IMG/VR virus record: IMGVR_UViG_3300037808_000364
Span: 32,001 to 96,000 of that record
DNA: 64,000 nt
Origin: a virus
Strand: one strand, 5' to 3'
Shown here: positions 45,685 through 63,613 of the stretch, one piece after another
Layout: the number at the start of each line of letters is the position of its first letter
How positions within the stretch are numbered: the first letter of the stretch is position 1
Made by a program: the position numbers and the translations under genes
Notes under the pieces: generated by a model
What the model was told of the DNA's origin: nothing
The model's database searches: none
The model's input: the letters and a program-made list of their open reading frames with translations, nothing else

Positions 45685-46692
45685 TTAGAATGAGCCTAGG
45701 ATAATGCGTCGATTATCGAGCACACCAAAGCCCAGTTCAGCCCAGCCGTAGTATCCAACACGTTGGCTACGGTGCAGGGTTGGGTCTTCGAAGACTTGCA
45801 GTTCTTGCTTCATTGGCATAATGAAGCTGTCTGTAGAGCCTTGATCCAGACCAACAACCAGTTCGAGGTCAGCCGCCTGAACAGCACCACCAAGACCAGT
45901 TGTGAAGAAATCCTGATATTCTTGGCCTTCACCAAATTCATCAAGATCGTGCAGGTTCACGCCGTAGATACGGGTGATAGGAGCACCACCTTCGCTCGCG
46001 GTGTAGATCTCACGACGAGTTACTTCGTCAATCTGATCCAGACCCCAGTTACGTACATCTTCCAGTGCTTCTGGAGAAACATACATATCTGTCAGTCGAC
46101 CACGGTTTGCAGAACCGGTGTTTCCACCAGCGTTACGACGCATAGTTGTCTGCATAAGAGAAACAAGTCTCTTACTGAACAGACCAGCAGTAGCATCGCC
46201 ATCGTAAACCAAGATGTTACGGTCAACAGCAGCAGCCAGAAGGGTATGCCAACCGTCATCGTTGATTTTCTTAACAAATCCAGCTTGCATTACCTGAGAG
46301 GCACGAGCAGCAACGTCCCAACGAGCTTCACGAGCATAACGCAGCAAGTAGTCAATACTTGACGTGATACCGTAAGTCGGGATCGTCACGTAGTCACTTT
46401 CAACTGAACGCTCAGGAATGCGACCATGTCCGGGATTAGTGAAAGCAACGTGCTCTCCTTCAAGACCCGGTGAAATCATGTCAAGAGGATACTCCGTAGA
46501 GGCTCCCGGCTCGACACTGATTGTCTCGAAGATATCTCCGAGAATATTACCAACAAGAACACCTTTACGCAAAGGAAGTTCGAGTGCTTTTGCCATTTGA
46601 CGTTGAGCAGCTTGAGCAACGTCTTGATCTTGGTTGCCAGTCTTTTTATACAGACTGATAAACTGATCGTCTGGTCTTTCTGTGAACGACAT
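45685..46692 (-). CDS. Major capsid protein (335 aa, HK97 fold inferred)
   Basis: Follows protease/scaffold and decoration genes; AAGGAG RBS; biased codon usage; terminator downstream; G.IPE E-loop and C-terminal G.YGWAELGFGVLD motifs. Confidence 0.9.
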   Translation of the reverse strand: MSFTERPDDQFISLYKKTGNQDQDVAQAAQRQMAKALELPLRKGVLVGNILGDIFETISVEPGASTEYPLDMISPGLEGEHVAFTNPGHGRIPERSVESDYVTIPTYGITSSIDYLLRYAREARWDVAARASQVMQAGFVKKINDDGWHTLLAAAVDRNILVYDGDATAGLFSKRLVSLMQTTMRRNAGGNTGSANRGRLTDMYVSPEALEDVRNWGLDQIDEVTRREIYTASEGGAPITRIYGVNLHDLDEFGEGQEYQDFFTTGLGGAVQAADLELVVGLDQGSTDSFIMPMKQELQVFEDPTLHRSQRVGYYGWAELGFGVLDNRRIILGSF

Positions 46693-55975: not shown

Positions 55976-56785
55976 TTAGTCCTTTACAGTTTCCGGTGTT
56001 AAGAATGGTTGATCTACCATTTCATCAGTGTATTTGTGAAATTCAGAAAGGCGGTCTTTCTCTTTCTCCATAGCTAGACGCATTTTCTCCATCTCTATTC
56101 CGTAACCCTTAGCTATATCAGGGTTCGAAACCAAGTGTGCTAACCAGCTAGTCCAGTTTTGCTTGCTGTCTTCAAGACGTTTGACCCTCTGTTCACGAGT
56201 AGCCTTCATATCTTTCATCATTGAGTTCTTCTTAGCCTGAAGCTCGCGGTAGTCCTTATTCAGAGATTCTTGAGAGGCCCGTAGAGACGCTATCTGTCTC
56301 TCCATGTTAAATAGCTCATCTCTGTCTATCTGATCGGCATCACGCGACCTCTCGACCCTCACAAGCTCCTCTAGGACACTGATCTGCTCCAAGTTCTCCT
56401 TGTTGCCCTTGAGTGCCCTGTTCATCAGGATATCCATCTTGATAAGGTCAATAACCTGCAACTCTTCAGTGGGCAGTACCTCGTCTTTGAATTGAGAGAT
56501 AATACGTACCCAGTGGAATTTGAACATTTTCAGTTCATCGTCTGTAAACTGTTGCTGAATCTCAGACCAGTAGGGTCTTGAAAGTAGATTATAGTGTGCA
56601 GTCTCTTCGTCGTCTGATTTTAACCACGAGGGAGCATTGAAATCTCCACTCGCCACCTTCCGCTTGATAAACTCAATAACGCTGGATGGGTCGCGATCTA
56701 GCTGCTCACCAATCAACTCGGGAGCGTCGTGTAGATGAGATTTAATGTAATTCTCTTCTTTTTTGGATATTCTACCCTTCTTCAT
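55976..56785 (-). CDS. Coiled-coil protein with N-terminal HTH-like segment, possible terminase small subunit (269 aa)
   Basis: KKGRISK.E..YI...IGEQLDR N-terminus; long helices; located in the operon upstream of TerL. Function is inferred. Confidence 0.45.
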   Translation of the reverse strand: MKKGRISKKEENYIKSHLHDAPELIGEQLDRDPSSVIEFIKRKVASGDFNAPSWLKSDDEETAHYNLLSRPYWSEIQQQFTDDELKMFKFHWVRIISQFKDEVLPTEELQVIDLIKMDILMNRALKGNKENLEQISVLEELVRVERSRDADQIDRDELFNMERQIASLRASQESLNKDYRELQAKKNSMMKDMKATREQRVKRLEDSKQNWTSWLAHLVSNPDIAKGYGIEMEKMRLAMEKEKDRLSEFHKYTDEMVDQPFLTPETVKD

Positions 56786-57287
56786 AATAACCGTGTTCCT
56801 CTAGGAGTTGTTTTACTATTTCAACAACTTCCTCACGCCTCTGTTTACTGATGTAGACATCATTAATGAGTTTAAGGTAATCCATCCTTACGTTGGCTGG
56901 CATATACTGATCAACAATACCAGTCATGGAGTCCATATCCAGTTGTTCATAAGAATTGGAGAATTTACCCTCTTCGTCAATAATACTGTTTTCATAGTCG
57001 AGTTGTGCTGGTTGAACTAGTTTTTTTCTAGCCTCACTTGTAGCACCCGTAAAATAGTTGTCCCTTACAAAGGTCTTAAGGCGATTCGATAGATTCACAC
57101 TTAGGAAGTTCTCAAGGGGTTTGCTGGGGTCATACCTATTTAGGGCTTCGATACAGATAATAAACGCTTCTTGTTTAATATCATCAGTTGTATACCCGTA
57201 GAAAGTATACTTGGGAGCTATCCTGTCTACCACGGTATTGATCTGATCAACTACCTCGGTCTCTGTCATTCCTTCCGGTACGTTCAT
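56772..57287 (-). CDS. Sigma70 region-2-like phage transcription factor (171 aa)
   Basis: DDIKQEAFI...EAL.RYDPSKP.ENF....L.NRL matches sigma region 2.2-2.4. Confidence 0.7.
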   Translation of the reverse strand: MNVPEGMTETEVVDQINTVVDRIAPKYTFYGYTTDDIKQEAFIICIEALNRYDPSKPLENFLSVNLSNRLKTFVRDNYFTGATSEARKKLVQPAQLDYENSIIDEEGKFSNSYEQLDMDSMTGIVDQYMPANVRMDYLKLINDVYISKQRREEVVEIVKQLLEEHGYYEEG

Positions 57288-57290
57288 GTC

Positions 57291-57944
57291 CTAATCCTCT
57301 GTTTTTACTGTTTGCCAAGACGTTCCGTTGAATAATTCCAACTTTTTGGAAACTTTGTTAAAAATAAGCGTACCCTGTCTTGGTCTTTTGGGTCGCCTAG
57401 TGAGCGGGGAGAGTTCCACACGTTCGTAGTGCGGTGATCGCTCGGCATCGTGGCGGCTTAACTGCTCAAGCAGTTCTGAAGCGGACAGTTCATCTACGTG
57501 ACCGTCTTTATAGCCGATGTAAGAGTCTTCTTCGAGGCAAATCAGAGCATCCGATGTCAGGACGCTACACGTATAACTTGGGAGAAGAGATAAATCACTT
57601 GGTTGGTAAGCAAATATAAGTACCTTTTGGTCATGACCGTACTTATAATTCTGACCCTCTATAAGTTGCTTGGTTTGTAGGGTCAGGATACCGTCTAGGG
57701 TCTCAAACTGACCAATATAATGGGAAGTATTAGCAATATTTCCTATAGAGTAGACACTTACACCAAAGAAGAAGGGTTCGCCCTCTCCTACAGATTTGGT
57801 AAGACATGGCAGGTTCGCACTTTCTATGGAAATTTTAAGATGATCATTTATTTCACAGTCTTCAGCACAACAATCCCCTATGGTAAAATAATCTGAGTTC
57901 CAAGTGCCAAAGCAAAACGAATCATGCGGTATCTTGATTTTCAT
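57291..57944 (-). CDS. Hypothetical protein (217 aa)
   Basis: C-terminal GTLIFN....LELFNGTSW motif seen in fibre-type proteins. Confidence 0.65.
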   Translation of the reverse strand: MKIKIPHDSFCFGTWNSDYFTIGDCCAEDCEINDHLKISIESANLPCLTKSVGEGEPFFFGVSVYSIGNIANTSHYIGQFETLDGILTLQTKQLIEGQNYKYGHDQKVLIFAYQPSDLSLLPSYTCSVLTSDALICLEEDSYIGYKDGHVDELSASELLEQLSRHDAERSPHYERVELSPLTRRPKRPRQGTLIFNKVSKKLELFNGTSWQTVKTED

Positions 57945-58089
57945 CCGGTTCCTTTTCCTTGGGTTTTAACAAGACCCCTAGGGCCTTATCGTCTTGTTCT
58001 AGTTCTTTGGAGATTTCCAGCTTCAATTCTGCGGTAGCCTTGCAACAAAGTTCTACCTCACAATCTTGTGGTTCTTTTTTACTGTTCAT
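57922..58089 (-). CDS. Small acidic protein (55 aa, MNSKKEPQDCEVELCCKATAEL...), below track cutoff
   Basis: ATG 58089 to TGA 57922; first ORF after the TTTGAGTATAAT motif at 58128-58139. Confidence 0.55.
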   Translation of the reverse strand: MNSKKEPQDCEVELCCKATAELKLEISKELEQDDKALGVLLKPKEKEPDENQDTA

Positions 58090-58163
58090 TCTTGCCCCAT
58101 GCGTTAAAGTTGTCTGTTCTCTACTCTATTATACTCAAATTAGACAACTTTGACAAAAAGGTT

Positions 58164-58192
58164 TTGTTAAAACCGTCAATTTTGACTAGAAT
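58164..58192 (+). promoter_or_regulatory. Sigma70-like promoter TTGTTA-N17-TAGAAT
   Basis: Correct spacing; located at the strand switch. Confidence 0.5.
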
Positions 58193-58196
58193 AGAG

Positions 58197-58509
58197 TGTG
58201 GCAATGGCTGTAAAGTGTCACAAATTTGCATGAAATTGGTAAAAAAACGTAATTGGGTACAGTTTAGCGTTCTGACCCACATGCAAATCAGAGGATTATC
58301 GGTGGGTGAACAAGCACCCCAAGGTGAGGCAACTACAAAATTCTGGGCAACGTGTGACCAACCGACCCAGACCTGTAAAGCAGCTTAGGCTGAAGCCCAA
58401 AGAGATTTAGTAACAGTAACACCAACTAGCACTAAAGTCCTCACTGTCCTCTAACACAGCTCCAAGTACCTTTACAGGTACAAATGGTCTTGGTACGCCC
58501 TGACGGGCG
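58197..58509 (+). ncRNA. Candidate structured non-coding RNA / long leader
   Basis: Many complementary segments, including 58224-32/58280-88 (9 bp) and 58371-80/58470-79 (10 bp). Confidence 0.5.
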
Positions 58510-58529
58510 ATAATTAACAGGAAGAAAAG

Positions 58530-59309
58530 ATGGAAACAAAAACTTGTAAGGATTGTAACCAAATGAAACCCCTAGATGAATTTGGTATTGTGTCAAAAAA
58601 ACGTAGGGATAAATATGGCAATCCTTATCGCCGTGGTATATGTAGAGAGTGTCATTCCGCAGGGACGAGATCTTACTACAAAGAAAATTCAGAACAGTGT
58701 AAGGTAGCAATGAAACGTTGGTACAAAGAAAACAGAGAGAGATCATTAGAGCGTAGAAAGCAATGGTATAAAGAGAATAGAGAAGAAAGTCTAGAATACC
58801 AAAAGAGGTGGCGAAAAGAAAATCCAGAAAAGGCACGGGCACAATGTAAACGCTGGAGAGAAGAAAACAAGGAAAAGATGTACGAAATTAGCAGAAGGTA
58901 CTACTTGAATAACAAGCAGAAAGTTCATGCCTACACAACCAAATATGCCCGTGAACACGTACAGGTACGAATAGCGAAAAGCCTACGAAGCCGTCTTTCG
59001 CATGCTGTAAAAAATGCTGAGACTAAGAAGGTCGGATCAACGATGGGACTGGCTGGTTGTACTCTAAGTAAATTGAAACAACATCTTGAGGGCCAGTTTC
59101 AGGAGGGCATGACTTGGGACAACTACGGCTTTTACGGCTGGCATATAGATCACATAAAGCCATGTGCAGCGTTCGACATGACGAACGAGGAAGAACAGAG
59201 GGCCTGTTTTCATTATACCAACTTGCAGCCGCTGTGGGCCGCAGAGAATTTGTCCAAAAATGACACTTGGGAGGAAGTAGAAAGTGGATTTGATGAATTT
59301 CGAATTTGA
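58530..59309 (+). CDS. HNH/endonuclease VII-like homing nuclease (259 aa)
   Basis: N-terminal CxxC pairs, WYKENRE repeats, C-terminal HLE.QF..GMTWDNYG..WHIDHIKP...YTNLQPLWA.EN..K. Confidence 0.88.
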   Translation: METKTCKDCNQMKPLDEFGIVSKKRRDKYGNPYRRGICRECHSAGTRSYYKENSEQCKVAMKRWYKENRERSLERRKQWYKENREESLEYQKRWRKENPEKARAQCKRWREENKEKMYEISRRYYLNNKQKVHAYTTKYAREHVQVRIAKSLRSRLSHAVKNAETKKVGSTMGLAGCTLSKLKQHLEGQFQEGMTWDNYGFYGWHIDHIKPCAAFDMTNEEEQRACFHYTNLQPLWAAENLSKNDTWEEVESGFDEFRI

Positions 59310-59670
59310 AGAGAGACTGGAACAAGCCGTAGACGCTAACACGCTGTTCTACGATGAGGAGAGCGATAATATATCCAAGAAGCTGATATATCTCATGTGG
59401 GGACATTCTAGGGACCGTCTGGAGACTATCCTTATACCGACGGATCTTTATCCGGAGTTTGATATTTGGGGAGAGACTAGATATGGTAAGACTACAGGGG
59501 CATATTTGGGCATTGAGTATATAAGAGATCGCAGGCTTGATCTTGAAAATGTTCAGGGTCTTATTAAGGAGTATGGAATGTCTATGCCAGTTAAGCACTC
59601 CGGGATGCTGCCTAAAAAACAGTTGGTTATGGGGATTTATAGGGACAAGACGATTCTGGGGGCTGTGTAA
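59284..59670 (+). CDS. Small paralog of the MCP A-domain (125-128 aa)
   Basis: Colinear motif matches to the C-terminal half of the MCP (see findings); overlaps both flanking genes; ATG 59293 is an alternative start. Confidence 0.65.
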   Translation: MDLMNFEFEERLEQAVDANTLFYDEESDNISKKLIYLMWGHSRDRLETILIPTDLYPEFDIWGETRYGKTTGAYLGIEYIRDRRLDLENVQGLIKEYGMSMPVKHSGMLPKKQLVMGIYRDKTILGAV

Positions 59671-60509
59671 TGGATACGAGGAAATGTAAAGAATGCGAAG
59701 AAACCCTACCTATTGAGAATTTCGGTAAGGATTACAGGGGGTGTACGAGGACTCGTTGTATGCCGTGTTATAAGGTAGTAAAAAAGAAGCAAAAGAAAGA
59801 GTGGTATGAAAAAAATAAGGAGGCCGTTGCTAAGGAAAATGAGAGGTATCGTAGAAGCGTGGGTATAAAACCTAGGGTTAAAAGGGGTCCGAATGGTTAC
59901 GAAACCTCAGTGTGTCGTGTGTGTGATATAGTCATTCCTCAGGACGAACTCTCCCCTAGTCAAAAGGGGCTAAAAACGTCAATTTGTAAACCCTGCTCAA
60001 GAGAGAGGGGCAAGAATAGGTATAAGGAAAACCCTAAGGTGAGAGAATACCACCGTCAGAGGTATCTCAATAACCGAGAGGAAGCCATTAGGTATTCCGC
60101 CCAGTGGAAGAAAGACAATCCTGAGAAACGTAGGGAGCATAAGAGAAAGTACCGTCAAAAAATAAATGAGAGAATCAGAAGACAACAGAGTAAGAGGGTT
60201 TCAGAAGCCCTTAAATCCATAGGGTGTAGAAAAAAATACTCTGTTTTGAAGTATTTAGGTTGTACTGCTGTCGAATTGATTAAACATCTTGAGGGTCAGT
60301 TTCAAGATGGTATGAATTGGGACAATTACGGGGTAAATGAAGAGAACTGGAAACTAGCGTGGCAGATAGATCATATCAAACCACTTAATAGCTTCGATCT
60401 GAGTCAGGAATCCGAGCAGATGGCTTGTTTTAACTATACCAATTTACAACCTTTGTGGGCCGAGGAAAATCTGAGAAAATCGGATAGCTACGACGAGGAG
60501 AATGACTAG
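59670..60509 (+). CDS. HNH/endonuclease VII-like homing nuclease, paralog (279 aa)
   Basis: Two Zn-finger-like units; same C-terminal WQIDHIKP...YTNLQPLWAEEN. Confidence 0.88.
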   Translation: MDTRKCKECEETLPIENFGKDYRGCTRTRCMPCYKVVKKKQKKEWYEKNKEAVAKENERYRRSVGIKPRVKRGPNGYETSVCRVCDIVIPQDELSPSQKGLKTSICKPCSRERGKNRYKENPKVREYHRQRYLNNREEAIRYSAQWKKDNPEKRREHKRKYRQKINERIRRQQSKRVSEALKSIGCRKKYSVLKYLGCTAVELIKHLEGQFQDGMNWDNYGVNEENWKLAWQIDHIKPLNSFDLSQESEQMACFNYTNLQPLWAEENLRKSDSYDEEND

Positions 60510-60664
60510 GGTTTATACTTATGGATTGGGTAATACATCCAGAAAAGTGCGGGGCGTTGCGACTGAACGACCCCTGCCTTTTTGGCAGTCCGACCACCTT
60601 TTTCAATCGGTACTATAACTGGCACCCCTTTCTCAAAAACTTGTAAAAAAGAGTTAAAGTACTG

Positions 60665-60693
60665 TTGACATTCTAGACGATAAGTATTATAAT
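60665..60693 (+). promoter_or_regulatory. Consensus sigma70 early promoter TTGACA-N17-TATAAT
   Basis: Perfect consensus; ATG 60700 lies 6 nt after the -10 box. Confidence 0.9.
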
Positions 60694-60699
60694 ACCCGT

Positions 60700-60891
60700 A
60701 TGACAAACAACAACACAGCACAGGAAAGCACGATGAACGAAGTAGCCGCAGCAGTCCAGAACATCATTGACACCAAATTCATCTCCTCTGGATTCGTTAT
60801 TCAGTTGACCATCGTCAACGAGTTGTCAGCAGCAGGGTTTGCAGTATCTCAGGAAAACATCGACAAAATTCAGGAAATGATTAACATCTAG
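60700..60891 (+). CDS. Early hypothetical protein (63 aa), paralog of 63419..63613
   Basis: Shared MTNNNT...MNE...FVI.LTI.N.L...G..V.Q.NIDKI. Confidence 0.75.
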   Translation: MTNNNTAQESTMNEVAAAVQNIIDTKFISSGFVIQLTIVNELSAAGFAVSQENIDKIQEMINI

Positions 60892-60893
60892 CC

Positions 60894-60921
60894 TTGTATC
60901 CTGTCGATAACTTGTTATAAT
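60894..60921 (+). promoter_or_regulatory. Early promoter TTGTAT-N16-TATAAT with extended -10
   Basis: TGnTATAAT; CGATAA in spacer as in sibling promoters. Confidence 0.75.
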
Positions 60922-60957
60922 ACACTCTCACAACAAACAACACACGAAAGCAAAACA

Positions 60958-61152
60958 ATGTTTACTACTCTCACCGAAATGTTCGACGCAGCTTACGACG
61001 GATCAATTGCAGGACGCACCGTATCCGCTGAACTCGCAGCAATGTTTGAGTGTTATGGAGGATGCTGGGTTGTTGAAGATTGGGACGGATTGGAAATCGA
61101 AATCAACATATCAACCCGAACCATCTTGGGAACCACCAAGTGGGGATGTTGA
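60958..61152 (+). CDS. Early hypothetical protein (64 aa)
   Basis: Own promoter and A/C-rich leader. Confidence 0.7.
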   Translation: MFTTLTEMFDAAYDGSIAGRTVSAELAAMFECYGGCWVVEDWDGLEIEINISTRTILGTTKWGC

Positions 61153-61165
61153 ATAGATACACTAT

Positions 61166-61311
61166 GGGGATGTGGCAACTAGTAGTCATGTTGCACCGGA
61201 AGGAATTCCGGCTTTATCTTTGGGCCTAACTTTCTAGAAGTGAAAGCCCTATCTGAGATTGATCATCTTAGACAATGATGAATGTGGGTGCGACTCCCAC
61301 CATCCCCAGCA
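61166..61311 (+). ncRNA. tRNA-like RNA lacking a canonical anticodon loop
   Basis: Acceptor stem GGGGATG/CATCCCC, D-like arm, T-arm GTGGG-TGCGACT-CCCAC, three internal hairpins. Confidence 0.65.
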
Positions 61312-61426
61312 TACAACGTAGGGCAACGTGCCTGAATAACGAGGCGTCTACTCAAATCCTCAACGCCTACAAGCCCGCAAGGGTGGAGATTGTAGTGGGG
61401 TATTAACTAACCAACTAAGGGATACC

Positions 61427-61777
61427 ATGACAAAGATCAAATCGTTTATTGATAACTTTCTGTTTCGCAAACTTAATCGGTTGAAGGGTGATGGTAAGAT
61501 GATAGCAACACAAATACCAATCAAGAGTAATCAGGATTACAGGGGAGATGCTCGCTTGTATAGGCTGAGTGAGCCAATGATGAACTACAACGGTGAGGCT
61601 TGTGGGTATGTACTAGTGAGTGCGTGCGATGTACCCTACAGTGGACCTGAGACATACATCTTCAGGGCCAATGCCAATGGTGACATTACTGATTGGTCTG
61701 AGCTTGAGGGTTCATTCAGAGGTGGGCTTGATCACGCTCAGGCTCTAGCTGATGCAGGCTATGACGTGCTGTCCTAG
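61427..61777 (+). CDS. Hypothetical phage protein (116 aa; may start at a later Met)
   Basis: ARLYRLS.P...YV.VSA...GPETYIF...G...DH..AL...GY pattern. Confidence 0.75.
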   Translation: MTKIKSFIDNFLFRKLNRLKGDGKMIATQIPIKSNQDYRGDARLYRLSEPMMNYNGEACGYVLVSACDVPYSGPETYIFRANANGDITDWSELEGSFRGGLDHAQALADAGYDVLS

Positions 61778-61825
61778 CCCATGCAATCGCCTACGCCCGC
61801 ACAGGGGCAAGTACGCCAGATGATG

Positions 61826-61903
61826 TAAGCCCTTGCACAGTAAGGGTTTACGTCTAGCGGCGGGGGCCGCGAGCGGCCTAACCCCTTTGGTAGTAACGAC
61901 TTA
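61826..61903. repeat. Paired 25-bp imperfect palindromes with 28-bp GC-rich spacer (copy 1)
   Basis: TAAGCCCTT-N7-AAGGGTTTA (61826-50); TAACCCCTT-N7-AACGACTTA (61879-903). Confidence 0.85.
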
Positions 61904-61955
61904 GGGCAATATCCGATTATCTTTTAAAACTTTCTAGATAGTGTGGCCTTTGGGG

Positions 61956-61984
61956 TTGTAATTTGTCGATAATATGTATATAAT
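61956..61984 (+). promoter_or_regulatory. Early promoter TTGTAA-N17-TATAAT, ATG 6 nt downstream
   Basis: Near-identical to 63384-63412, including upstream GTGGCCTTTGGGG. Confidence 0.85.
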
Positions 61985-61990
61985 ACTTAC

Positions 61991-62212
61991 ATGACAAACA
62001 CAAACACAAACAACGAAAGAAACGACATGAGCAACATGCGATTGGCCGCAAGAACAATTATCCGTGAGTTTGCTGAGATGGAGTTGAACATGTACTATGT
62101 CGAAGAAGATATTCTGAACTATGCCGAAGGCGAGTTTGAAACGGCACTGTGGATGGCATTGGAAGAATACATTGCAGTAAATGGAGAATGGGATGGATAT
62201 TCTGCAGAATAA
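61991..62212 (+). CDS. Early acidic hypothetical protein (73 aa)
   Basis: Follows promoter; strongly acidic. Confidence 0.7.
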   Translation: MTNTNTNNERNDMSNMRLAARTIIREFAEMELNMYYVEEDILNYAEGEFETALWMALEEYIAVNGEWDGYSAE

Positions 62213-62261
62213 CTGTTGACAACTGTGGTCAAATGACAACCAACAACACAAAGGGAAAACA

Positions 62262-62414
62262 ATGAGAATGGTTCTGGTTCTGGGTTTGGGTGGAATTGGC
62301 GGAGCTACTCGCCGCATCGTAAAACGTCTTACGGTCGTTGAGTTCCAAAACTACAAACTGCAGAACAATGAGGAATTTGACTTTTCTCAGTTTAAAACCC
62401 TGAACAGGGGTTGA
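62262..62414 (+). CDS. Small hypothetical protein (50 aa, MRMVLVLGLGG...), below track cutoff
   Basis: A/C-rich leader and AAGGGA RBS like neighbours. Confidence 0.55.
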   Translation: MRMVLVLGLGGIGGATRRIVKRLTVVEFQNYKLQNNEEFDFSQFKTLNRG

Positions 62415-62439
62415 CTTTTGGGCAGATTTCTGCTATAAT
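62411..62439 (+). promoter_or_regulatory. Early promoter TTGACT-N17-TATAAT, extended -10
   Basis: Consensus match. Confidence 0.85.
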
Positions 62440-62475
62440 ACACACTCACAAGTTAAGTTTTTGAAAGTAAGTAAG

Positions 62476-62691
62476 ATGAAGAAAAAAGCAAGTCAACTAG
62501 TTCCCGGCGACGTAGTCGCAGGTTTCCACGGCAACCGCCGCGTTCTCAATGTTCCTTTCGCTGCTCGGCAGCATGGACAGAAGAAGGCTTCTATCCTTCT
62601 TCAAAATGTAGAGACTGGCGTTAAGTCTCATGTTCTTTGGGGTTTCCACACAACCATCTCAATGGTTTCAATTGTAGGAGTTGAAGTATGA
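62476..62691 (+). CDS. Early basic hypothetical protein (71 aa), duplicate of 63668..63883
   Basis: 67/71 aa identical to the second copy; start set at ATG 62476 by comparison. Confidence 0.85.
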   Translation: MKKKASQLVPGDVVAGFHGNRRVLNVPFAARQHGQKKASILLQNVETGVKSHVLWGFHTTISMVSIVGVEV

Positions 62692-63418: not shown

Positions 63419-63613
63419 ATGACAAACAACAACACACAAGGCAAAACAATGAACGAAATCGCAGTAATAGTAGCAGAACGAGTAGACGGCATTGATTCAG
63501 AATTCGTGATTGAACTCACCATTATCAATCAACTGAAATTCGACGGCGTTTCAGTAACTCAGAAAAACATCGACAAAATTAGAGGAATTATGTTCGATAT
63601 GGCTTCCAATTAG
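63419..63613 (+). CDS. Early hypothetical protein (64 aa), paralog of 60700..60891
   Basis: Sequence similarity to the first copy. Confidence 0.75.
   Translation: MTNNNTQGKTMNEIAVIVAERVDGIDSEFVIELTIINQLKFDGVSVTQKNIDKIRGIMFDMASN

Follow-up and report, generated by a model that had tools for sequence, protein, structure and literature searches.

Why does a marine phage carry, apart from its head genes, a short gene whose product resembles the C-terminal half of its own major capsid protein (MCP)? The gene lies in the window, by which we mean the whole 64,000-nucleotide stretch of DNA analysed here. The source is an uncultured marine phage, and its record is a 112-kb IMG/VR phage entry with an estimated completeness of 67%. 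The two genes under comparison are the following.

45685-46692, minus strand: MCP gene, 335 aa, assigned to an HK97-fold lineage related to phage G gp27 by tblastn, PDB profile, hhalign and gene neighbourhood

59284-59670, plus strand: gene for a predicted free-standing A-domain protein, 128 aa, from reading of the ORF, orthologues and profile homology to the MCP

The larger gene was compared with known head proteins. Its product matched the major head protein gp27 of Bacillus phage G by tblastn (E 4e-6), and the MCP profile matched PDB entry 6wkk (E 1.1e-7). Direct comparison of the MCP with gp27 by hhalign gave 95.5% over 199 columns. The neighbouring genes form a head module with a protease, the large terminase, minor head proteins and a probable portal. 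Searches of Pfam and PHROG with the MCP returned no match. By its profile matches and its neighbourhood, the protein is an HK97-type capsid protein. It is extremely abundant in marine metagenomes, where it forms more than 4,600 clusters at 90% identity. The best 120 MCP relatives from these clusters were all at least 81% identical, and a search for more diverse sequences to add to the MCP alignment yielded none below 81%. AlphaFold2, run on the MCP with 27 near-identical sequences, gave an unusable model (pLDDT 31.9).

Pairwise BLASTP of the small protein against the MCP covered 29 aa only, at an E value of 0.002, and paired LEQAVD..ISKKLIYLM with LAAAVD..FSKRLVSLM. A profile of four close homologues matched the MCP at E 0.0019. 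Both values fail correction for all comparable protein pairs, and the non-significance of the BLASTP match over all protein pairs of the window speaks for a chance resemblance between two unrelated proteins. Larger profiles gave a different result. An HMM search of 1.84 billion representatives returned about 20 further small proteins (68-159 aa, most of them 106-159 aa) and no full-length capsid protein; the small-protein family comprises about 20 clusters at 50% identity. When a profile of 21 family sequences was compared with the MCP profile using hhalign, the two aligned over 106 columns, small-protein residues 2-119 with MCP residues 141-283, at 97% probability and a P value of 8.6e-11. 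As controls, 30 column shuffles of the family alignment scored 10.4-21.6, compared to 70.5 for the real alignment, and the reversed family profile scored 19.3 against the MCP.

The family HMM was also run on six-frame translations of 13 related genomes (the genome of the window, G001, G005 and ten further large relatives). The MCP was the sole match outside the family in 13/13. In the window's genome the match covered 45844-46266 at E 3.9e-5; the E values were 3e-6 in G001, 5.7e-8 in G005 and 1e-5 to 7.4e-5 in the ten large relatives. tblastn seeded with a distant family member matched the MCP gene directly (5e-7). Identity between the small protein and the MCP is about 21-23%, and the family consensus is nearer to the MCP than any single member, as seen in AVDxNxxVYD, NITKKLIYLM, YGV, LVxG and LGAV. 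Collectively, these profile comparisons indicate that the small protein is a true remote homologue of the C-terminal half of the MCP. A profile comparison of the small-protein family with phage G gp27 gave no match (P 0.17), suggesting that the origin of the family lies in this MCP lineage rather than in HK97 proteins generally. In a maximum-likelihood tree, a single long branch with full support united the MCP A-domains, and the small proteins made up the rest.

The HK97 layout runs from the N-arm and E-loop through the P-domain and spine helix into the A-domain, continues with a late P-domain hairpin and ends with a C-terminal return to the A-domain. We mapped the MCP domains by alignment to gp27 together with this layout, with the domain borders of HK97 gp5. 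Three stretches of the MCP gene matter for the comparison.

45844-46266, minus strand: MCP residues 143-283, the end of the spine helix and the main A-domain segment, homologous by profile to small-protein residues 2-119 (hhalign P 8.6e-11)

45715-45843, minus strand: MCP residues 284-326, the late P-domain hairpin, without a counterpart in the small protein; its excision extends the alignment to both C-termini

45688-45714, minus strand: MCP residues 327-335, the C-terminal strand NRRIILGSF, homologous to the C-terminal RDKTILGAV of the small protein

MCP residues 284-326 align to residues 238-273 of gp27. With MCP residues 1-142 and 284-326 cut out, the score increased from 66.9 to 75.1 (P 8.4e-13), and the alignment ran through from end to end, pairing ILGAV with ILGSF. 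Both A-domain segments are thereby covered colinearly, including the C-terminal strand that follows the excised hairpin. Profile P values of 8.6e-11 and 8.4e-13, shuffles that score far lower and an MCP match in 13/13 genomes refute a chance resemblance of the motif pairs, which we regard as practically negligible.

On the domain map, the small protein extends over the last turns of the spine helix, the A-domain core and the C-terminal strand. The missing N-terminal part, residues 1-142, holds the N-arm, the E-loop, the first P-domain elements and most of the spine helix, and the missing internal part, residues 284-326, is the 43-residue late P-domain hairpin. Two more segments of the A-domain itself are gone, at about residues 184-195 and 219-240. 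Compared with HK97-fold MCPs, the small protein is thus without N-arm, E-loop, P-domain hairpin and most of the spine helix, and it therefore cannot build a shell; the combination of N-arm, E-loop, spine helix and P-domain that marks a shell-forming MCP is not found in it. Read from these alignments, the product of the small gene is a trimmed, free-standing axial (A) domain of the phage lineage's own HK97-fold MCP. The gene goes back to an old copy of an MCP gene that lost 142 N-terminal residues, the 43-residue hairpin and two A-domain loops. Phage G gp27 (PDB 6wkk), the closest relative with a solved structure, is in turn homologous to the window's MCP, the A-domain part of which is the homologue of the small protein.

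These results bear on several claims of the initial annotation, which had aligned the small protein colinearly with the MCP C-terminal half through a list of motif pairs. Every listed pair but one lies in the single alignment, which has the P value of 8.6e-11 and a score of 70.5 against shuffles of at most 21.6. The exception is the pairing of YLGI with IYGV: the IYG of the MCP pairs instead with RYG at residues 66-68, and YLG falls within KTTGAYLG, an insertion particular to the sub-lineage of the window protein. The parts described as absent, about 150 and about 45 aa, are indeed absent, but their sizes are 142 and 43 aa. A clean domain excision had been proposed, and the alignment does reach both C-termini after the cuts (P 8.4e-13). 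The proposal that the A-domain is what is left agrees with the deletions on the HK97 layout, but the last turns of the spine helix are kept as well and two A-domain segments are gone.

Structure prediction and structure searches were run on the small protein. AlphaFold2 with an alignment of four sequences only gave an unusable model (pLDDT 38.6). The ESM Atlas held no model of the small protein, and its feature matches there, at 0.85-0.86, were at chance level. A PDB profile search with the small-protein family returned only matches to KH/STAR domains (E 0.05-0.1, 37 residues), which were judged to be chance.

The signals around the small gene and its immediate neighbours are listed below.

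58164-58192, plus strand: candidate sigma-70-like promoter at the strand switch, 9/12 matches, by consensus match only

58530-59309, plus strand: HNH/endonuclease VII-like homing endonuclease gene, 259 aa, directly upstream (phrog_1035 at 6.6e-16)

59270-59274, plus strand: ribosome-binding site GGAGG, seen in the sequence itself 9 nt upstream of the GTG

59670-60509, plus strand: second, paralogous HNH endonuclease gene, 279 aa, directly downstream (phrog_1035 at 5.1e-15)

The start codon of the small gene (59284-59670, plus strand) is the GTG at 59284, and relatives have an ATG, TTG or GTG at the same position. An alternative ATG at 59293 gives a 125-aa form, which is the gene call on record in the source collection. 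The 5' end of the gene overlaps the stop (59307-59309) of the upstream HNH gene, and its TAA has one base in common with the ATG of the downstream HNH gene (TAATG overlap). The N-terminus of the window's small protein is acidic and leaderless. The protein is soluble-looking.

The initial annotation had placed the gene outside the structural operon, which agrees with its position across the strand switch. There it lies amid small ORFs and sigma-70-like promoters; among the resident genes of the rightward unit, it comes first in this phage type. On the leftward side, the genes at the strand switch encode a 217-aa protein, a gp55-like small sigma factor and a 269-aa protein. The -10 region of the promoter candidate is conserved in relatives, and a conserved leader of ~330 nt lies between the promoter-like site and the first gene. 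Judged from the consensus match and this arrangement, the candidate at 58164-58192 is likely the start of the rightward unit that holds the small gene, and the region is probably the start of an early transcription unit. An Rfam search of 57500-62500 gave no match. Compared with HK97-fold MCPs, the small gene differs in lying outside the head operon and in being missing from most relatives.

The HNH genes on both sides raise the question of whether the small gene has any function, or is a hitch-hiking piece of the MCP gene that homing-endonuclease traffic has carried along and that drifts. HNH genes flank the small gene here and in most relatives, and they belong to two unrelated types overall, which speaks for this explanation. 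The two flanking HNH proteins of the window share 35% identity. In relatives, the upstream HNH gene is present, absent or a remnant, and the downstream one is missing in L003/L004. Around the small gene there is no HNH gene in L007, L008 and L012, one in L003/L004, L013 and L015, three in L005 and a remnant of 40 aa in L009-L011. An HNH gene is found at the locus without the small gene in L016, L022, L077-79 and others. All four combinations occur (both, small gene only, HNH only and neither), so that the small gene and the HNH genes do not form one unit, which argues against hitch-hiking. The presence of HNH genes at the locus in relatives without the small gene suggests that they are invaders of a hot spot rather than partners. 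The small gene as cargo of its flanking HNH endonucleases was also considered and rejected, since the two vary independently.

The distribution of the small gene was then established in relatives. Of the viral contigs recovered via the sigma gene, 1/76 had the small gene nearby. A family HMM search of the whole records of ten large relatives, three of them at least 94% complete, found the small gene in 0/10. In L092, L095 and L096 the gene occupies a second slot, in the order HNH gene of the other type, 86-aa zinc-ribbon ORF, small gene and FmdB-like gene, and this module runs on to a RecA-like gene. Both slots are rich in homing endonucleases. Small genes of one slot share 72-76% identity with those of the other, and they grouped together in the tree, suggesting that the gene moved between slots.

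The complete relative G001 (130.8 kb) carries two decayed copies. The first is a frameshifted family member adjoining the 269-aa gene. The second, in the second slot, consists of 32 residues that are 56-63% identical to the MCP spine helix; it adjoins the same HNH type, and the FmdB-like gene begins exactly where it ends. A search of viral contigs found no relative of the 83-aa MCP-remnant ORF of G001. Both the spine-helix remnant beside its HNH gene and the frameshifted copy are what a drifting, endonuclease-borne fragment would leave. The decay of both copies in a complete relative suggests that the gene is dispensable. The small gene is thus a rare, mobile accessory gene, and it is kept under selection, as the following comparisons show.

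All 14 distinct related loci, drawn from 20 locus records of which several had identical sequences, carried the reading frame intact and at similar length, as did the window. By the Nei-Gojobori method, dN/dS of the small gene was 0.15-0.5 in most pairs and below 1 in all but one, and that one pair, at 0.87-1.0, is a further point in favour of drift. The marks of a pseudogene (frameshifts or stops, variable truncation, dN/dS near 1) do not describe the small gene. Its frame is intact and its length conserved down to 26% identity, conservation extends to its termini and motifs, most pairs have a dN/dS below 0.5, and the deletions fall exactly at domain boundaries. These observations, together with the independent occurrence of the small gene and the HNH genes, make a functionless hitch-hiker improbable. 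The small gene is a real, working gene. The earlier argument that it is not a decaying fragment is borne out by the ORF intact at 14 distinct loci, the ~20 clusters and dN/dS below 1 in all but one pair; homologues under purifying selection were found, most pairs lying at 0.15-0.5.

Selection on the small gene was compared with that on its neighbours. In the same genome pairs, dN/dS was 0.31-0.87 for the small gene compared to 0.03-0.12 for the directly adjacent genes, a 3-10 times higher value, and protein identity fell to 66-76% in the small gene compared to 84-100% in the neighbours. Orthologues were 36-93% identical to the small protein (the closest pair 88% by tblastn), while in the same phages the MCP was at least 89% identical. 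This suggests that the small protein is not tracking the MCP. The small gene is under purifying selection and its protein evolves fast, as do genes in conflict or weakly constrained accessory genes.

What the small protein does was approached through its family, which was found only on phage or metagenome contigs. The lengths and termini of members are conserved down to 26% identity. The motifs IPTDxYPEFD and RDxRLN are strongly conserved in the family and have no counterpart in the MCP. Searches with the 21 family members against Pfam, PHROGs and NCBIfam found no family apart from Tat-signal matches. A word-based search of longer proteins gave no fusion containing the small protein, scans of viral contigs with the close-family profile gave no matches, and the profile of the Tat subfamily found no member in 185,579 species genomes. 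Among the 21 aligned members, two distant ones, P0143 and P0145, scored 19.1 and 18.5 against the Tat-signal model TIGR01409 (cut-off 16.7) and have N-termini with an RRxFLK-type leader. A third, P0147, starts with RRGFLQ, a motif seen by eye only and unmatched by the model. The window's small protein gave no twin-arginine match to TIGR01409 or PF10518, and other members have unrelated N-terminal extensions that vary from member to member. One homologous family therefore holds both leaderless and Tat-leader forms. The Tat-type leaders point to export or membrane anchoring of the members that carry them.

These features are what would be expected if the A-domain core had been exapted, that is, reused as a small and stable alpha/beta scaffold in a role that has nothing to do with capsid mimicry, for example an envelope or periplasmic role in the members with Tat leaders. 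The likeness to the MCP would then be a mere trace of origin. The family's own conserved motifs, an identity to the MCP of only about 21-23%, two members above the TIGR01409 cut-off and the variable N-terminal extensions all speak for such reuse, as does a precedent for the fold: in PMC11476376, Pyrococcus furiosus PF0899/DUF1884 and dodecins are described as stand-alone cellular A-domain-like folds. PF0899 and dodecins resemble the present case in having an A-domain-like core as an independent small protein. Their likeness is structural only, whereas the small-protein family has sequence homology to one phage MCP lineage. Against reuse, no family, fold or neighbour indicates any particular other function, the window's own protein is leaderless, and fast evolution and a place among probably early accessory genes better fit conflict than a housekeeping gene. 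We consider an unrelated job for the domain possible, although somewhat unlikely.

The reading to which we lean, tentatively and with less than even confidence, is that the small protein is a putative soluble mimic of the A-domain of unassembled MCP, with a host capsid sensor as its partner. The idea of an assembly-incompetent capsid decoy in the initial annotation is partly supported: the homology, the deletion pattern, the position and the working gene agree with it, and the fold, early expression and decoy activity are predictions. Bacterial immune systems read capsid proteins as one of their main molecular patterns. The Gol peptide of T4 gp23 is the trigger read by Lit. The MCP is the trigger of CapRel(SJ46), as summarised in PMC13728456. 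For Avs7, Avs8 and Avs10, a 2026 preprint reports binding to the MCP A-domain, on its penton/hexon-forming face (bioRxiv 10.64898/2026.01.04.697583). Among the capsid sensors Lit, CapRel(SJ46) and Avs7/8/10, several are reported to read the MCP part that is kept in the small protein. In those sensor systems the trigger is the real MCP, whereas here the MCP domain stands alone. The mimic would engage a partner that normally recognises the A-domain of unassembled MCP, most likely a host immune sensor of the MCP of the Avs7/8/10-like, CapRel-like or Lit-like kind, and the sensor would be blocked or occupied before the real MCP appears.

Homology to the MCP, an intact and selected gene, its accessory and mobile spread and its fast evolution all favour mimicry of the unassembled A-domain, as do the reported A-domain contact of Avs7, Avs8 and Avs10 and the position of the gene past the strand switch. 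Other observations fit it poorly. An identity of 21-23% to the MCP and the loss of two A-domain segments make faithful surface mimicry doubtful, and the small protein varies while the MCP stays nearly constant. The Tat leaders in some family members misfit a cytoplasmic decoy, and a binder of an immune sensor could equally trigger that sensor. The decayed copies in G001 and the dispensability of the gene also count against mimicry. Searches of the literature found no phage-encoded stand-alone MCP domain acting on capsid sensors.

A lone A-domain could alternatively act on the capsid itself, by docking on the MCP at the capsomer-forming face. Assembly would be poisoned or tuned in a co-infecting relative, in a capsid-hijacking satellite or in the phage itself. 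The small protein is a homologue of the domain at the centre of capsomers, and a near-invariant MCP in a very abundant phage group would let one poison act on many competitors. Satellites use small proteins of this kind of action: SaPI CpmB, P4 Sid and PLE TcaP redirect the capsid assembly of their helpers, and acting on the coat protein as they do is one possible role here. CpmB, Sid and TcaP are not derived from coat proteins, and they are encoded by satellites rather than by phages. A poison of this kind would also poison the phage's own, almost identical MCP. The absence of the gene from most relatives speaks against a core role in assembly, and the great divergence from the MCP also argues against docking. 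We therefore regard interference with or control of assembly as unlikely.

A second MCP-derived gene within one phage is known from T4, in which gp24 is the vertex protein, a paralogue of gp23 that keeps the whole fold and is part of the virion. The small gene is like gp24 in being a second MCP-derived gene, and differs from it in encoding one domain only and in being an accessory gene. A full-text literature search found no paper on stand-alone phage A-domain genes, and this kind of gene is undescribed in the papers and family libraries that we searched. One may imagine a broad, undescribed class of phage capsid pieces, in which single-domain MCP copies, free-standing or Tat-tagged and of independent origins in HK97/phage G-like, T4-like and P22-like lineages, would neutralise or pre-empt receptors of the A-domain capsomer face (Avs7/8/10-type, CapRel-type). 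We hold the existence of such a class to be doubtful.

For a gene that encodes only the A-domain and is selected, fast-evolving and mobile, a role as counter-measure or assembly weapon naturally suggests itself. Should its function prove to be unrelated, it would still stand as a well-documented exaptation of a domain taken from a structural gene. It also offers a clean instance from nature of an HK97 A-domain that persists as a protein in its own right, which bears on the origin of the fold.

The MCP (major capsid protein, window 45685-46692, minus strand) belongs to an unusually abundant and conserved family, which forms more than 4,600 clusters when grouped at 90% identity and is found on at least 568 viral contigs. 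Neither Pfam nor PHROG holds a model for this family, and its nearest characterised relative is gp27 of phage G. Two sites of the complete 130.8-kb relative genome G001 bear on the small gene, a free-standing homolog of the MCP A-domain:

L090 9989-10270 (a locus of G001): small-family copy with a frameshift, immediately following the homolog of the 269-aa gene, one of the leftward genes near the strand switch
L180 1501-1752, minus strand; G001 112072-112173: 83-codon ORF in the slot of the A-domain gene

At the first site, 65 codons are followed by a stop and the similarity resumes in a different frame, which shows that the small gene can be lost. At the second, the 83-codon ORF replaces the A-domain gene that precedes an FmdB-like gene in the related loci L092, L095 and L096. 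The last 32 residues of this ORF share 56-63% identity with the MCP spine helix, and the ORF runs exactly up to the start codon of the following gene. Relatives were sought among viral contigs and none were found. Either a capsid-piece gene has been truncated here, or the ORF represents a second type of capsid-piece mini-gene.

The strand-switch region of the window carries the following features:

56772-57287, minus strand: gene for a 171-aa protein (phrog_351 match, 1e-4)
58193-58529: untranslated stretch of ~330 nt that separates the first rightward gene from the promoter-like site upstream of it
58530-59309 and 59670-60509: free-standing HNH endonuclease genes

The 171-aa protein resembles sigma factors in their N-terminal region only, and it may be a late sigma factor of the gp55 type. 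It is 43-95% identical across 76 viral contigs, on which the 269-aa gene always comes next. The DNA of the untranslated stretch is strongly conserved among relatives, whereas the flanking proteins there are only 33-44% identical, and it contains the inverted pair CCTGTAAAG ... CTTTACAGG. The stretch, for which a search of window 57500-62500 against Rfam gave no matches, probably corresponds to a small RNA or a structured leader. HNH genes of at least two families have a hot spot beside the putative sigma-factor gene (also in loci L005, L016, L022, L036, L054 and L077-L086), with zero to three copies per genome, together with remnants. The two copies in the window are paralogs (35% identical).

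Further rightward lies a group of small ORFs:

60665-60693: sigma-70 promoter of perfect consensus (TTGACA, 17 nt, TATAAT), directly upstream of the next feature
60700-60891: 63-aa early ORF
63419-63583: second copy of this ORF, 55% identical, ~2.7 kb downstream

The perfect consensus suggests early transcription of the small-ORF region by the host polymerase. A further copy of the 63-aa ORF is present in the related locus L004.
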